Part shown: in pieces, positions 178 to 60,456 of the stretch
Position numbering within the stretch: the stretch's first letter is position 1
Layout: each line of letters starts with the position of its first letter
Virus record (IMG/VR): IMGVR_UViG_3300031951_000044
DNA: 64,000 nt
Direction: 5' to 3' (one strand)
From: a virus
Taxonomy: Duplodnaviria; Heunggongvirae; Uroviricota; Caudoviricetes
The notes under the pieces: model-generated
What the model was told of the DNA's origin: nothing
What the model saw: only the letters and a program-made list of their open reading frames with translations
The model's database searches: none
Made by a program: the position numbers and the translations under genes

Positions 178-495
178 TCAAACAAGTTCAATTTTTAGTT
201 TCTTCGGAAGAAATTCAGTCCAAAATTCTCGATCGGTAAGAGGATTAAGATTTCCTTTTTGCATATTACAGCGACGACAACAAACAAATAGATTCTCAGG
301 AGAATTAGCACCTCCTTTCTTAACAGGTACAAAATGGTCAGCGGTCATACCATTTTTACTGTGCTGATGATTCCTCAGCTTAATAACTTTCTTTTCACAA
401 TACACACAATGGAAATCAGAATTAATCGCCATAATTTTATCAATGAACTTTTTGGTTACACGACGACGAGCGTTCTTTGATGGTGCTGTGTTCAT
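178..495 (-). CDS. HNH endonuclease
   Basis: HCVYCEKK...ADHFVPVKKGGANSPENLFVCCRRCNMQKGN = HNH motif with Cys pairs. Confidence 0.7.
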   Translation of the reverse strand: MNTAPSKNARRRVTKKFIDKIMAINSDFHCVYCEKKVIKLRNHQHSKNGMTADHFVPVKKGGANSPENLFVCCRRCNMQKGNLNPLTDREFWTEFLPKKLKIELV

Positions 496-6637: not shown

Positions 6638-6710
6638 AGTACCCCCACCTAGAATCGAACTAGGAACCGAAAATTAGAAGTTTTCTATTATATCCATTTA
6701 ACTATGGGGG
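6638..6710 (-). tRNA. tRNA-Arg (anticodon TCT)
   Basis: gene strand gcccccA...gaaaa/CTTCTAA/ttttc...cctagTTCGATTctagg-tgggggt-a; anticodon stem 5 bp, T-arm canonical, acceptor 7 bp with G1-U72; D-arm not cleanly resolved by eye. Confidence 0.6.
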
Positions 6711-6732
6711 CAAAAGTCGAACCTAAAAATGT

Positions 6733-7264: not shown

Positions 7265-7502
7265 AAGCATTATTTTCATATCTCCAACACTTACCTGAAA
7301 ATTTTCATATCTGTGGGTGTGCAAGTTCATGTGGTGGGATTACGGTTTACCCACATCGCTGGTCGCAGACCATGCAGTTGTCGCTTTACAATCACACATG
7401 AACATAGGTCGTTTACACAACCGAAGTTTCTCTTCTCCCGACCAAGGAGCGGTCTTGACCCACAGATATGATATTCAAAGAACTCTTTTACTTTTCGGTG
7501 GG

Positions 7503-7525
7503 GGTCGGTGACGTTTTCACCGACC
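7503..7525 (-). terminator. stem-loop downstream of AT-hook mini-gene 1
   Basis: ggtcggtg-acgtttt-caccgacc perfect 8-bp stem; weak U-tract. Confidence 0.35.
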
Positions 7526-7558
7526 CTCTCCACCTACTTAACCAAACCAACCAACCAA

Positions 7559-7717
7559 TTATCCTTGTGCTTCCTCAGCTTTCCTTGCTTCTCGCTCTGC
7601 TCGTTCGCGCAACTTTTGTTGACGCTTAGAGTCAGGTTTAACAGAACCTTTGGGACGACCGCGCTTGCGCTTTGCAGTTTCCACAGACGTTACCGGTGCT
7701 TCAAGAGTTGCTTCCAT
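7559..7717 (-). CDS. AT-hook mini-protein (52 aa), paralog 1
   Basis: manual ORF MEATLEAPVTSVETAKRKRGRPKGSVKPDSKRQQKLRERAEREARKAEEAQG; RGRP AT-hook; own TAacTTTG promoter at ~7745-7765. Confidence 0.4.
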   Translation of the reverse strand: MEATLEAPVTSVETAKRKRGRPKGSVKPDSKRQQKLRERAEREARKAEEAQG

Positions 7718-7857
7718 CGTTTTTCGTGTTTAAGGTTTGTGTTTCTGTTACCGATACAAAGTTAACTATTCTTATTCAATTTTGCAAGTCTTTTTTCTCT
7801 TTTTTTTCGGTGGGGGATCGGATGACCAATTTCACCCGACCCAAATACCCCACCTAC

Positions 7858-7996
7858 TTATGCTTCCACTTCAACAGTCTTATGTGCATCTCGCTCTGCT
7901 CGTTCGCGCAACTTTTGTTGACGCTTAGAGTTAGGGTTCACCGAACCTTTGGGACGACCGACTTTACGCTTCTCACTTACCACTACATTTTCCATG
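7858..7996 (-). CDS. AT-hook mini-protein (46 aa), paralog 2
   Basis: MENVVVSEKRKVGRPKGSVNPNSKRQQKLRERAERDAHKTVEVEA; tandem duplicate of 7559..7717. Confidence 0.4.
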
Positions 7997-11672: not shown

Positions 11673-11858
11673 CTACTCATCCTTAAACAAAATTATATCA
11701 CCATCCCCATCAACATCAACGTCATCCCACTTACCCATCGCTCGATAACGACTGAGGACAGTATCGGTGTCTTTGCTATCAAAGACTTCCAATGTCCTCA
11801 TATTGTCAGCATCAATCACTCGTTGCTTATTCATGGTCGTCATTTTTAATTTATGCAA
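11673..11858 (-). CDS. hypothetical acidic protein
   Basis: co-oriented ORF; promoter 11848-11872 (ttatgcaaagctacaacaaaaat). Confidence 0.4.
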   Translation of the reverse strand: MHKLKMTTMNKQRVIDADNMRTLEVFDSKDTDTVLSRYRAMGKWDDVDVDGDGDIILFKDE

Positions 11859-12126
11859 AGCTACAACAAAAATTCAAAAATACAAGCGCCAACGAAAAAT
11901 AATTTTTGACCATACCCCACACTAATAAGGAACGTGCGTGTGCGCGAAGTATACGCAAAAGACTTCGTATTTCCAAATAGTTTGAAAGAAAAAGTTATTA
12001 ACAGAAAAAAAATGTTAAAATCCTTGCTTTTGTTATATTTATTGTTATATGTTCTTTAGCTATTGCAGAATCAAAAAGTTCTCCGTATCTTGCTGGGTTT
12101 TTGAGATTAATTCGGTCCTATTAGAC

Positions 12127-12240
12127 GTTATGGACGCTATTGTATTAAGCTGTATAGCGTCTATTGTATTAGGCGTTATGGACGCTATTGTATTAAGCTG
12201 TATAGCGTCTATTGTATTAGGCGTTATGGACGCTAATAGG
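12127..12240. repeat. 48-bp tandem repeat x2.3 (iteron-like) inside 650-bp noncoding region
   Basis: gttatggacgctattgtattaagctgtatagcgtctattgtattaggc repeated at 12127, 12175, 12223; flanked by ttaataagttaataagttaat micro-repeats. Confidence 0.8.
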
Positions 12241-12507
12241 ATTACTGAAGTCAAGATGAAATTGTAATAAAAAAATAAATTCAACACAAAAAAAATAGTT
12301 AAAGTTAATAAGTTAATAAGTTAATTTGGAAATTTAATATTTAATGTTATTCATTGTTCATCTATTCCAAATTAAAAAAAATATTCGTAACTTGTGAGAT
12401 TTTTCAACTTAACTCAAACCTATTATTAACCATAAAACGTATTGTATTATGTGTTATTGTATCTAATAGAAAAATTAGACTAAAAAACGAATTTTTAATT
12501 TTTATTA

Positions 12508-12702
12508 TTATTTTTTTTCAGAATATTGATGACATAACACAACTTCTTTGGTTTCCTCGTCAACTATCACACTGACTATTGGTTTATCAACTCTATATCT
12601 AATTTCATCTTCAAAAATACCTTCCTCACCATTAACAATCGAATAATCTAGAAATTCTTCTGGTAATGTTTTCAAAAATTCTAATAGTTCTTTTGTTTTC
12701 AT
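12508..12702 (-). CDS. hypothetical protein
   Basis: co-oriented ORF. Confidence 0.4.
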   Translation of the reverse strand: MKTKELLEFLKTLPEEFLDYSIVNGEEGIFEDEIRYRVDKPIVSVIVDEETKEVVLCHQYSEKK

Positions 12703-12741
12703 TATAAATTTTCTATTTTTTTTTAATCTTATTAAATAAGA

Positions 12742-12770
12742 GGGGGGGGGAGGGGGGGGGAAGGAAAGGA
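12742..12770. repeat. homopolymeric purine tract G9-A-G9 (C-tract in 5' leader of minus-strand gene)
   Basis: aggggggggg aggggggggg aaggaaagga. Confidence 0.9.
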
Positions 12771-12779
12771 AGACGGGAA

Positions 12780-12959
12780 TTATTCTTGCACAACAAAATA
12801 TTTGAACGCTTCAACCTCTTCTTTAAAAATATCATCCGGTCCATAATGTTTCTTTATAAAAACATTTGCTTCTTCCTCAGTTTCAAAACCATGTGTAATG
12901 TATTGTACATATGGTTTTTCATTAGGTAAATTAACAGTTCTGTATATTGTGTAACTCAT
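12780..12959 (-). CDS. hypothetical small protein (59 aa)
   Basis: manual ORF MSYTIYRTVNLPNEKPYVQYITHGFETEEEANVFIKKHYGPDDIFKEEVEAFKYFVVQE between the two G-tracts. Confidence 0.35.
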   Translation of the reverse strand: MSYTIYRTVNLPNEKPYVQYITHGFETEEEANVFIKKHYGPDDIFKEEVEAFKYFVVQE

Positions 12960-12979
12960 TTTATTATTTTTTTTGTTAA

Positions 12980-13010
12980 GGGGGGGGGGGGAGGGGAGAA
13001 GGAACGGAGA
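12980..13010. repeat. homopolymeric purine tract G12-A-G4 (second copy)
   Basis: gggggggggggg aggggagaaggaacggag. Confidence 0.9.
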
Positions 13011-13014
13011 TTAT

Positions 13015-13317
13015 TTATTCTGGATAACCTTTAAATTTTGTTGGTTTTTTATTTTCCATCTTTTCTTTCTCTAACACATGTTTTATAAATTCATTAATAT
13101 CGGAACTTAAATTAAACATTAAATTTGTTACAGTGGTACATTCTCTCCAATAGGTAAAAAGTATATAATTAAAAACCTTTACAAATGTTTTACGTTCAAG
13201 AATGTGATATTCCAGACCATCATTTGATGGTATAAAACGAATTCTTGTGTTTTTATCAATATAATAAATATTTTTCATTTTAAGAAAAATTAAAATATTG
13301 TTCACAATAGATATCAA
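13015..13317 (-). CDS. hypothetical protein
   Basis: co-oriented ORF. Confidence 0.4.
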   Translation of the reverse strand: MISIVNNILIFLKMKNIYYIDKNTRIRFIPSNDGLEYHILERKTFVKVFNYILFTYWRECTTVTNLMFNLSSDINEFIKHVLEKEKMENKKPTKFKGYPE

Positions 13318-14438: not shown

Positions 14439-14603
14439 ACTAATTTATTGTTTAAAAATCATTTTTTATCCGTTTTTTTAAGAAAAATTTGTACGCTAAA
14501 TAATAAACCAATGAGAGAAATAAATGCTATAATAAAAATTTCGTGTGATTGCATTGTAATATATGTTTAATGTTAGACAATAAGTTGGTGATTTGGTTGC
14601 CTA

Positions 14604-15517: not shown

Positions 15518-15574
15518 TTTTTAATATTTTTAATTTGTTTCACAAAGATATGGAATCCTTTTCGATTTCCAAAA

Positions 15575-15889
15575 TTATTCTTCTCTAATAGAGATTTTTT
15601 TAATATATACAATAGTTGATTTTGGTATTGAAACACAATAACCAATCATGTTCTCATTTCTAAAATAACTATCAGTTAAGACTAGCTTATTTGCGTCCTG
15701 ATAAACGATAAATCCAAGTTGTGTTACCGTATCTTGTTGTGCTCCTGACCATTCCAGCATTTCGTCATATGTTCTCCATCCACCATCTGTTGCTGTAATA
15801 TCAACCCATTTTATTAAAACTGGTTGGTAATCCTGTGAATAAACATTAATTCCAATAGCTAAAAATATTAAAAAAAGTAAATTTCTCAT
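15575..15889 (-). CDS. secreted hypothetical protein (signal peptide)
   Basis: MRNLLFLIFLAIGINVYSQ N-terminus. Confidence 0.45.
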   Translation of the reverse strand: MRNLLFLIFLAIGINVYSQDYQPVLIKWVDITATDGGWRTYDEMLEWSGAQQDTVTQLGFIVYQDANKLVLTDSYFRNENMIGYCVSIPKSTIVYIKKISIREE

Positions 15890-41474: not shown

Positions 41475-42062
41475 ATGATATTTATGGTTATGAAAAAGAT
41501 AAAATTAACAGAATCGGATTTATATAGAATTGTTAGAAAGGTTCTTCTTGAACAGGAGGAAGAAAAGAGAAGTTTTACATTTTCTCCGGGAGCATTTGCA
41601 TCTTTTATAACATCATCATCAGGTGAAAGATTTGTTAAACATCTTAATAACAAATATGATGAGATTGTTGTTAATGGGCATTTGGATTTAAGTGAAACAC
41701 AAATTCAATCCTTACCGGATAATCTTAAAGTTGGGGGAAGTTTGTGGTTAAATGGAACACCAATTCAATCCTTACCGGATAATCTTCATGTTGGGGGAAG
41801 TTTGTATTTACGAGGAACACCAATTCAATCCTTACCGGATAATCTTGACGTTAAGGGATTGTTGGATTTAAGAGGAACACCAATTCAATCCTTACCGGAT
41901 AATCTTCGTGTTGGGGGAAGTTTGTGGTTAAATGGAACACCAATTCAATCCTTACCGGATAATCTTAGGACTGGATTAGAAATTGATATTATCAATACAC
42001 CATTAAGTAAAAATGATGAATTAGTTGCGAACTATAGAAAAAAATATATAATTGTTAAATAA
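41475..42062 (+). CDS. LRR-like repeat protein (5 x 20-aa GTPIQSLPDNLxVGGSLWLN)
   Basis: 60-bp tandem DNA repeats 41695-41975. Confidence 0.55.
   Translation: MIFMVMKKIKLTESDLYRIVRKVLLEQEEEKRSFTFSPGAFASFITSSSGERFVKHLNNKYDEIVVNGHLDLSETQIQSLPDNLKVGGSLWLNGTPIQSLPDNLHVGGSLYLRGTPIQSLPDNLDVKGLLDLRGTPIQSLPDNLRVGGSLWLNGTPIQSLPDNLRTGLEIDIINTPLSKNDELVANYRKKYIIVK
41695..41975. repeat. 60-bp in-frame tandem repeat x ~4.7
   Basis: caattcaatccttaccggataatctt... repeated. Confidence 0.85.
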
Positions 42063-59655: not shown

Positions 59656-60456
59656 TCACATATATTCAAATAACTCTGATGATTGGTTTCTAAGCTTTCT
59701 CAATGCTCTTTCTTTTATTTGACGAATACGTTCTTTGGTAAGATTAAAATCATTTCCAATTTCCTCAAGTGTTCTTGTTGATCCACTTAAACCAAAATAA
59801 TCATCAATAATAACTTTCTCCCTCTCATCAAGAATATTCATAACATCAAATAATTTTTGTTTTAATGTGTCCTGAGTTGAGAACCCTGAGTCGGGTGATA
59901 ACGCATTTGGGTTTACAATTACATCAATCAATGAATCACCATCTTCATTAATATTCATATCTAATTTAACAATTGACGGTAATGAAGAAAATCTATCTGA
60001 CAGGTTATCACCAGTTTTTTCAGACTTTTTCTTTTCCTTTTGTAAATCTTGAATTACGTTTACAGGAATTCTAATTGATCTAGATTTTTCATTTAATGAT
60101 TGAATTACTGATTGTCTAATCCACCAAACAGCATATGAAATAAATCTTAATTTTTTGGTCCAATCAAAGCTATCAATTGCCTTAATCAAACCCAAATTAC
60201 CTTCAGCAATTAAGTCACCCAATTCCAGTCCTTGATTTTGATATTGTTTTGCCACACTAATGACAAACCGTAAGTTACCCTCAAGGAGTTCTTTTTTAAT
60301 ATCATCTATCTGCTCTTTATTTGCGATGCCGCTATTCATTACTTCAGAAAGCTCTCTTTCCCTTTCAGGAGTCATTACTTTAAATTTACGGATATCTTTT
60401 AAGTACCCATAAATTTCTTCTTGGTTAATTGAAACTGTAGTGTTTTTGTCTTTCAT
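59656..60456 (-). CDS. sigma-70 family RNA polymerase sigma factor
   Basis: region 2 LRFVISVAKQYQNQGLELGDLIAEGNLGLIKAIDSFD; region 4 TLEEIGNDFNLTKERIRQIKERALRKLR. Confidence 0.75.
   Translation of the reverse strand: MKDKNTTVSINQEEIYGYLKDIRKFKVMTPERERELSEVMNSGIANKEQIDDIKKELLEGNLRFVISVAKQYQNQGLELGDLIAEGNLGLIKAIDSFDWTKKLRFISYAVWWIRQSVIQSLNEKSRSIRIPVNVIQDLQKEKKKSEKTGDNLSDRFSSLPSIVKLDMNINEDGDSLIDVIVNPNALSPDSGFSTQDTLKQKLFDVMNILDEREKVIIDDYFGLSGSTRTLEEIGNDFNLTKERIRQIKERALRKLRNQSSELFEYM

Follow-up and report, generated by a model that had tools for sequence, protein, structure and literature searches.

The DNA analysed here, a 64,000-nucleotide (nt) stretch of a virus of the class Caudoviricetes (IMG/VR record IMGVR_UViG_3300031951_000044) that we refer to as the window, carries two long homopolymeric G tracts between three successive small genes on its minus strand. 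The first gene encodes 87 amino acids (aa; 13015-13278), and its stop codon precedes the tract that we call A; the second encodes 59 aa (12780-12959, ATG at 12959) and lies between both tracts; and the third encodes 64 aa (12508-12702, ATG at 12702) and lies downstream of tract B. On the plus strand, the core of tract A is G12-A-G4 (12980-12996) within 27 nt of pure polypurine (12978-13004), and the core of tract B is G9-A-G9 (12742-12760), a perfect 19-nt mirror repeat within 36 nt of pure polypurine (12738-12773) that becomes polypyrimidine on the mRNA strand. The corresponding sense-strand cores are C4-T-C12 and C9-T-C9.

Runs of this kind are otherwise nearly missing from the window, where the share of G is 12.5%. 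Tracts A and B are the sole G or C runs longer than 6 in the 64 kb; the runner-up G run has 6 (one case), and the longest C run has 5. A first-order model predicts 0.003 runs of at least 9 and 1e-5 runs of at least 12, and among 200 shuffles no G run exceeded 8, a length reached once. Only two G-rich polypurine stretches occur in the window, and the tracts form their cores. These counts bear out a first-pass annotation of the sequence, which had placed two long G tracts here in DNA otherwise almost free of G runs. Independent assemblies from three or more projects (JGI, ENA and SRA/Logan) also contain both tracts between identical flanking sequences. We conclude that the G tracts are genuine and far above chance expectation. 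Pattern scans for G9AG9 and for CCGT..TTCCTT..C8 in IMG/VR, and for TTTCCTTC6YYYYC6 in viral, genome and metagenome collections, returned unrelated material only, many of the matches lying in low-complexity stretches, in sequence of high GC content or at the ends of contigs.

Each tract lies in a spacer between two genes. Spacer A (55 nt, 12960-13014, minus strand) reads TAA-ATAA-TCTCCGTTCCTTCTCCCCT-C12-TTAAC-A8-TAATAAA-ATG, ending at the start of the 59-aa gene, and spacer B (77 nt, 12703-12779, minus strand) reads TAA-TTCCCGTCTTCCTTTCCTT-C9-T-C9-TCTTATTTAATAAGATT-A9-TAGAAAATTTATA-ATG, ending at the start of the 64-aa gene. In spacer B, which contains 3 G in 77 nt, C9TC9 is followed by TCTTATTTAATAAG, containing the palindrome CTTATTTAATAAG, and then by an A-rich leader up to the ATG. 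The polypyrimidine part starts 4 nt (A) or 0 nt (B) past the upstream stop codon. Both tracts do lie upstream of successive minus-strand genes, as had been reported at first pass, but the distance of about 30 nt to the start codons given there needs correction, since the end of the C run is separated from the ATG by 20 nt in A and 39 nt in B. The two tracts repeat each other in direct orientation, with 74% identity over 27-38 nt, and flank the 59-aa gene; on this similarity we regard them as paralogous.

Motifs of the form TTG-N19-TAnnTTTG(C/T)A, which we take to be the sigma-A promoter form of Bacteroidota, occur in many intergenic regions of the window, and 49 good sites on the minus strand, the phage's own Bacteroidota-type promoters, were used to train a position weight matrix (PWM). 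The nearest strong promoter upstream of the tracts (TTG-N19-TAnnTTTG, 15537-15582, minus strand, PWM score 19.8) is the likely start of the operon, and the next strong promoter downstream (11850-11895, minus strand, score 21.7) marks the start of the following transcription unit. Between them, the other sites scoring above 6 were one of 12.2 inside the 193-aa gene (14838-14793) and one of 8.5 inside the 64-aa gene. The PWM search covered both strands of the window and of relatives and detected no promoter within or after the tracts; on the plus strand near the tracts none scored above 4. A sigma-70 consensus scan performed no better than on shuffles. From one strong promoter to the other, most genes overlap or directly adjoin their neighbours (-4 to +3 nt). 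Longer spacers precede the 193-aa gene (53 nt) and the 94-aa gene (165 nt), both at the operon's 5′ end, and the two genes behind the tracts. Based on the promoter positions and the tight gene packing, tracts A and B are intercistronic spacers inside a single operon, ahead of its penultimate and its final cistron, respectively, and not 5′ leaders of the genes as had first been proposed, neither having a promoter of its own. The 64-aa gene is the final gene of this operon, and past it lie ~600 nt of noncoding DNA with 24/48-nt tandem repeats.

An exact-sequence look-up of the flanking proteins retrieved nine contigs from eight samples (JGI, ENA and SRA/Logan), and tract alleles were read from these short-read consensus assemblies. 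Over 28,175 aligned nt the genomes, which are otherwise 99.9-100% identical, differed outside the tracts by 4 substitutions and one 48-nt repeat-unit indel, whereas the two tract cores, 36 nt together, had undergone at least 7 allelic changes. Tract A was found as C4TC12 (window, SRR9659501), C4TC10 (ERZ27247979), C4TC6AC3 (ERZ27247975) and, via a T>C change at 12992, as an uninterrupted C17 (ERZ27247957; at least 16 C in JGI 3300005525). Tract B was found as C9TC9 (the window and two samples), C10TC8 (JGI 3300005525) and C9TC10 (ERZ27247978 and JGI 3300031787). Runs of A or T of 8-9 nt gave 0 length changes (seven runs, 32 comparisons), and in four samples tract A is where the contig ends. 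Both the length of the C runs and the presence of their interrupting base change far faster than the surrounding DNA. This allele pattern is what a slippage-prone site would give, as the tracts had been called from the start, and slipped-strand mispairing in replication is the likely cause of the variation.

Homologous tracts occur at three positions in four diverged relatives, which share about 70-78% DNA identity with the window over common segments. Relative 1 (contigs L110 and L111) keeps the tract at the A position, as CCTTATCCCCTTCTTTCCTCCCT-C10/C11-TTAAC-A9/A10-ATG, and has no C run at the B position. Its homology to the window begins inside tract A, at window position 13002, and the gene upstream is a 4HBT thioesterase replacing five window genes. 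The 87-aa gene is the last of this five-gene block, which is replaced by other genes in relatives, and tract A is the right edge of the block, a breakpoint in gene content. The contig of relative 2 (L112), which stops short of the A position, starts with C12-TCTTGTTAATAAAAC..ATG; tract B is kept there with at least 12 C and is again an assembly break. Relatives 3 (L113 and L114) and 4 (L115) have decayed sequences at the A position (CCCTAC7TCCC and CCCAC7TCCTCC, respectively) and no C run at the B position. Each of the two carries a B-like copy at a third position, which in relative 3 reads ACTCCCGTCCT-C11-TCTTTCTT and precedes by 58-75 nt a different gene that has been inserted past the 70-aa gene, and which in relative 4 reads CTTCTTTCCTT-C6TC10-T11 and is placed in the same way. 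In relative 3 a 74-aa gene occupies the place upstream of the A position. The homologues of the 59-aa gene in the relatives encode 56 aa, and those of the 64-aa gene 70 or 67 aa.

An alignment of nine copies showed a shared order of stop codon, C/T tract, C run, T/A motif, A-rich leader and ATG. The C/T tract is 20-25 nt long and CTTCTTTCCTTCC-like, the C run is usually split by one T, and the flanks have diverged in sequence and are still almost purine-free. The distance from the C run to the ATG ranges from 14 to 75 nt, and all copies lie directly 5′ of a gene. A further ~15 kb beyond the window ends, bringing the genome examined to ~79 kb in all, contained no more tracts, and for this reason we consider the family to be local to the variable early region. 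We conclude that the tracts very probably form a small family of paralogous, portable and partly conserved intercistronic spacers that precede small accessory genes. The copies occupy different intergenic sites, between which they were presumably copied by recombination. The paired occurrence that the first-pass annotation had singled out is no coincidence, and neither of the outcomes it had named as pointing to neutral low-complexity sequence, invariant tract lengths and absence from relatives, was found.

Searches of GenBank phages with the locus (megablast and blastn) gave no match, and an RNA ligase encoded in the window had distant protein matches only among them (≤35%). No relatives of the 59-aa or 96-aa proteins were found in IMG/VR, and 22 loci of that collection with a shared 323-aa protein (59-67% identity) had no tracts and no synteny for the small genes. 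A metagenome scan with a 26-mer from the 59-aa gene gave no match, though the phage is present in JGI samples.

We next considered what the tracts might do. Our tentative preference, held at well below even confidence, is that they are a functional, spacing-tolerant modulator of downstream expression, a role suggested by the composition and persistence of the spacers. In this reading, the poly-C segment would be exposed once the ribosome leaves the upstream stop codon, presenting RNA that is C-rich, almost G-free and unstructured; the termination factor Rho would load on it and reduce read-through into the 59-aa and 64-aa genes; and drift in C-run length would generate a population with graded expression of these two genes. 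Rho as the specific factor is a more doubtful proposition than modulation as such. Rho prefers RNA that is unstructured, free of ribosomes, rich in C and poor in G, and a Rho utilization (rut) region spans 70-80 nt with a C every 11-13 nt (PMC6407284). Rho is functional in Bacteroidota according to PMC11697453.

The composition of the spacers is consistent with such a role. The sense RNA would carry poly-C, as had been noted at first pass, on a strand that has G>C throughout the window (C minus G, mean -3.6, standard deviation 6.1), a bias that would make most transcripts poor Rho substrates. The two tract spacers are the top two C>G 78-nt windows on the sense strand (C30/G6 and C28/G4, with 28 and 25 pyrimidine-C dimers), with the region of spacer B ranking first. 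The sense RNA of the spacers has no significant structure (z = 0.29), with the C runs unpaired in the minimum free energy (MFE) fold, and both spacers have the properties expected of rut sites in being C>G, unstructured and ribosome-free. In the tna leader, a rut site lies directly after the tnaC stop codon, and the spacers resemble it as C-rich, G-poor, unstructured and untranslated RNA that begins right after a stop codon. Also favoring function, C runs of at least 10 are kept at equivalent sites in diverged relatives, with flanks that are still almost purely pyrimidine.

Several points weigh against expression modulation, and against Rho in particular. Six C residues spaced by 11-13 nt were not found in any 78-nt window across either tract, and the C residues are clustered in about 35 nt, the C-rich part being about 27-40 nt long, as opposed to the regular placement over 70-80 nt in published rut regions; we know of no study of rut rules in Bacteroidota, the group of the host. 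Relatives 3 and 4 keep the 56-aa homologue behind a decayed tract (C7 with interruptions) and relatives 1, 3 and 4 keep the homologue of the 64-aa gene without a C run, and because the downstream genes are retained behind decayed or missing tracts, the tracts must be dispensable. Their confinement to one locus in ~79 kb argues that they are not a general regulatory signal. There is no obvious rationale for a rut site before the last two genes of the operon and not after them, and homopolymers can persist by mutational equilibrium without selection. Furthermore, because the alleles come from short-read consensus assemblies, Illumina or assembler mistakes within long G/C homopolymers could account for part of the variation, namely for some of the differences in length.

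Three further mechanisms were examined. Frameshifting by the tracts is excluded, as they lie outside open reading frames (ORFs), each between a stop codon and the next ATG. RbpB, an RNA-binding protein of Bacteroides, was considered as a reader of the pyrimidine tract and was rejected, given its preference for AU-rich RNA (PMC11697453). A structured RNA element is unsupported, on the grounds of the MFE z score given above and an Rfam search that returned no family.

We also considered a more elaborate form of the modulator hypothesis, in which the tracts would be a portable, hypermutable poly-C leader cassette acting neither by frameshift nor by promoter spacing. Its drifting length would set how often Rho, or another C-specific reader, aborts transcription before an accessory gene, so that a burst would contain phages with graded expression of small anti-host genes, and the tracts would double as joints for gene swaps. 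We regard this combination as improbable, clearly more so than modulation alone.

Nearly as likely as a functional modulator, and placed close behind it, is a neutral, self-maintaining repeat, in which an ancestral pyrimidine-rich spacer seeded C runs that slippage expanded, an insertion/deletion bias brought to an equilibrium length and passive duplication spread, with no selected effect. This possibility fits the confinement of the tracts to one variable locus in about 79 kb, their loss or decay in some relatives that retain the downstream genes, the free variation of length, interruptions and ATG distance, and the lack of a match to any known motif or RNA family. It is harder to reconcile with runs of at least 10 C that persist at equivalent sites across about 25-30% DNA divergence, in a genome of 28% GC where C is the rarest sense-strand base, or with flanks that stay almost purine-free despite sequence change and the position of each copy directly 5′ of a gene.

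The breakpoints in gene content raise the possibility that the tracts serve as recombination joints, where microhomology or break-prone non-B DNA (G-quadruplexes, or H-DNA at G9AG9) would permit swaps of accessory cassettes. The homology with relative 1 that begins inside tract A, where one 4HBT thioesterase gene stands upstream in place of five window genes, agrees with this proposal, as do the 74-aa gene in that upstream place in relative 3, the B-type tracts that precede different genes in different relatives, and the arrangement of the window tracts as direct repeats flanking the 59-aa gene. There is a reported precedent in the promoter-early stem-loop (PeSL) elements of T4-type phages, which Arbiol et al. 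in 2010 are said to have described as mobile regulatory cassettes. Like these, the tracts are short repeated intergenic elements in a variable early region and stand at the boundaries of differing gene cassettes, that is, of shuffled modules; unlike them, they have no promoter or stem-loop and consist of low-complexity C/T sequence instead. However, only a handful of junctions support the idea, the extra gene of relative 3 is flanked by a duplicated noncoding module and not by a tract, and no deletion variant formed between A and B, lacking the 59-aa gene, was found. We consider recombination joints unlikely as the explanation of the tracts, a little less credible than the composite cassette described above.

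The G-rich strand itself offers another hypothesis, that the tracts act as DNA structures, either as a G-quadruplex (G4) or triplex roadblock or as a hybrid G4/R-loop that stops antisense transcription or primes replication near the iteron-like repeats. A G4Hunter score of at least 2 was reached at two sites only in 64 kb, tract B (3.08) and tract A (2.76), which bears out the earlier description of the plus strand as G4-capable, and a regular expression for four G runs of at least 3 with short loops matched these two sites only. ViennaRNA with its G4 option predicted a 4-layer G4 in tract B and a 3-layer G4 in tract A, with energies of -62.9 and -43.4 kcal/mol against -10.8 and -7.8 without G4. 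For H-DNA, G9AG9 but not G12AG4 is a perfect 19-nt mirror, and its symmetry is lost in the alleles C10TC8 and C9TC10. As predicted structures, non-B forms at the tracts could promote breaks or recombination.

[quoted passage not shown] The tracts share its form of G run, A and G run as well as its G4 capacity (for the element see PMC3488243 and PMC4176368), and copy-number-variable 24/48-nt repeats lie 500 nt away, all of which would suit a DNA-structure role. CSB II depends on a G-rich strand that is non-template and hence gives G-rich RNA. In the window, by contrast, the minus-strand position of the operon makes the G-rich strand the template of the sole evident transcription unit, so the C-rich sense RNA cannot form a G4. 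No host-type plus-strand promoter points into the tracts, the GC skew of the window gives no origin signal, and some relatives lack one or the other tract. These observations make a DNA-structure role quite unlikely, slightly below that of recombination joints.

Phase-variable expression was suggested as possible in the first-pass annotation. In the classical sense it would require the C run to act as a promoter spacer, for example for a phage sigma factor, in which changes of 1-2 nt switch a gene on or off. The observed length polymorphism would serve such a switch; the phage encodes a sigma-70 family protein, and in tract A and the copy of relative 1 the C run stands between TTCCTT/TTCTTT and TTAACA, which are 17-19 nt apart. 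On the other side, the tracts lie outside ORFs, no host -33/-7 elements flank them, the putative hexamers are poor and not common to the copies at the B and third positions, the leader in A would be about 5-10 nt only, the ATG distance ranges from 14 to 75 nt, and no similar tract stands upstream of other genes in 79 kb. A promoter-spacer switch is unsupported given the lack of flanking promoter elements and the variable ATG distance, and we consider it very unlikely.

The closest known kind of element is nonetheless the homopolymeric contingency locus. Homopolymeric G/C contingency loci are known from Campylobacter jejuni and its Fletchervirus phages and, recently, from the coliphages T2 and T4 (PMC12633550; Sorensen et al. 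2021 cited there). The tracts resemble these loci in consisting of long G/C runs in an AT-rich genome of a T4-like or large phage, with length heterogeneity ascribed to slippage. The usual run length of at least about 7-8 nt is exceeded by G9+G9 and G12+G4, and the variation rate is far above background, as judged from consensus assemblies and not from reads. Unlike the phage loci described, most of which act by frameshift inside ORFs (receptor-binding proteins, agt and rIIA), each tract lies between two cistrons, neither within an ORF nor between spacing-critical elements; they also form a paralogous family and have no evident on/off logic. The Bordetella fim C-stretch, the Neisseria opc poly-C and the porA poly-G lie between promoter or activator elements, where spacing is critical. 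Like these, the tracts are 9-17-nt runs of poly-C/G just upstream of a gene and are length-polymorphic, whereas no promoter elements were found here and the spacing is not conserved. We conclude that the tracts behave as a hypermutable repeat and probably not as a classical phase switch.

Translation enhancement, in which a pyrimidine tract would recruit S1 or another single-strand binder at uncoupled cistrons in a host without Shine-Dalgarno pairing, appears less likely still. Most other operon genes abut or overlap (-4 to +3 nt) whereas the tract genes have long spacers, the tract travels with the downstream gene, and no sequences like the Shine-Dalgarno element were found. However, a U-rich tract would suit S1 equally and be cheaper in an AT-rich genome, which leaves the C unexplained; the ATG distance of 14-75 nt is too variable; and RbpB prefers AU-rich RNA (PMC11697453). 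Finally, the idea that the tracts are artefacts of sequencing or assembly, such as a chimeric join or the poly-G produced by two-colour chemistry, is already effectively refuted: poly-G patterns are common at contig ends in public data and the tracts coincide with contig breaks, but both tracts are internal, with unique conserved flanks on either side, and were found again in JGI, ENA and SRA/Logan assemblies and in diverged relatives.

One further parallel is to the poly(C) of the 5′ untranslated regions of cardioviruses and aphthoviruses, which is 60-400 nt long and whose function is debated. Those elements are likewise long, length-variable poly-C in untranslated viral RNA upstream of coding sequence; they belong to eukaryotic RNA viruses, with no evolutionary or mechanistic link to the tracts.

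The two genes downstream of the tracts encode genuine conserved small acidic proteins, to judge by their homologues, and are orphans of this phage clade. The 59-aa protein is small and acidic, with homologues 48-54% identical, and the 64-aa protein is acidic, with homologues 73-75% identical in a MAFFT alignment and 76-79% in BLASTP local alignment. An AlphaFold2 model of the 59-aa protein had a predicted local distance difference test (pLDDT) score of 82.8 and a beta-beta-alpha-beta fold, and its best match in the PDB was not significant (E = 0.59). The model of the 64-aa protein was unreliable (pLDDT 50). Searches of the flanking proteins against PHROGs, Pfam and PDB sequences gave no match.

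Nearly all genes of the window are on the minus strand. They include two RNA ligases, an SbcC/gp46-like nuclease, an HNH endonuclease gene (178-495, minus strand) and a sigma-70 family protein with regions 2 and 4 (59656-60456, minus strand), the last of which implies a class of phage-specific promoters. Genes for tRNA-Met (2787-2861) and tRNA-Arg(TCT) (6639-6711) are also present. One sample yielded contigs of this phage of 148.6 kb and 38 kb, and because these do not overlap each other the genome probably exceeds 200 kb, making this uncultured phage probably a jumbo phage. The start codons of the window have no Shine-Dalgarno sequences, and from this together with the promoter form we consider the host almost certainly a member of Bacteroidota. 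Going by their JGI sample numbers, the samples are presumably freshwater lake metagenomes.

Several other features of the sequence were observed. The 165-nt spacer upstream of the 94-aa gene contains a 31-aa ORF (14459-14554, minus strand), probably a real micro-gene because its protein is 84% conserved in relative 3 (L113, 5435-5530). The ~600-nt noncoding gap contains an iteron-like array of alternating 24-nt tandem units, TATTGTATTAGGCGTTATGGACGC / TATTGTATTAAGCTGTATAGCGTC, at 12114-12239; a sixth copy is at 12440-12469, and a 48-nt unit of this array is missing in two otherwise near-identical assemblies (L097 and L100). Next to it, a conserved noncoding module at ~12110-11900 (minus strand) includes ACTTCGCGCACACGCACGTTCC, which is unchanged in all relatives. 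In relatives 2 and 3 (L112 and L113) the module is duplicated, with an inserted gene between its copies. It may represent a small RNA, an origin element or a site bound by protein. Relative 3 has a 536-aa gene in opposite orientation in its otherwise collinear early region (L113, 2361-3971, minus strand of the locus) that is absent from the window.

Elsewhere in the window, two 99-nt repeats (7586-7684 and 7885-7983), 87% identical, lie beside GC-rich palindromes (GGTCGGTGAAAACGTCACCGACC-like), with hairpins near 7500-7530 and 7812-7860. The repeats and palindromes are conspicuous in this AT-rich genome and may be terminators or repeat elements. Repeats of 60-nt period, each with TACCGGATAATCTT..GTTGGGGGAAGTTTGT, lie at 41733-41917; calculated from the coordinates, the end of the 148.6-kb contig of ERZ27247957 appears to fall near them.

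Taken together, the tracts are a real, statistically extreme and evolutionarily recurrent feature with a putative regulatory role. A practical consequence is that short-read assemblies of this abundant freshwater phage are systematically broken by them. Hypermutable simple repeats are a classic form of bet-hedging in bacteria and have been recognised in phages only recently, mostly within coding sequences; the tracts would represent a version that lies between genes, is paralogous and has persisted through evolution, in a phage of a phylum (Bacteroidota) with transcription and translation signals unlike those of model systems. If neutral, they are a clean example of long G/C homopolymers persisting in an AT-rich viral genome. 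If instead they tune read-through, they would show that phages can diversify the expression of accessory early genes at the level of the transcript, and the length of the C run would provide a natural handle on Rho loading or non-B DNA effects in Bacteroidota.

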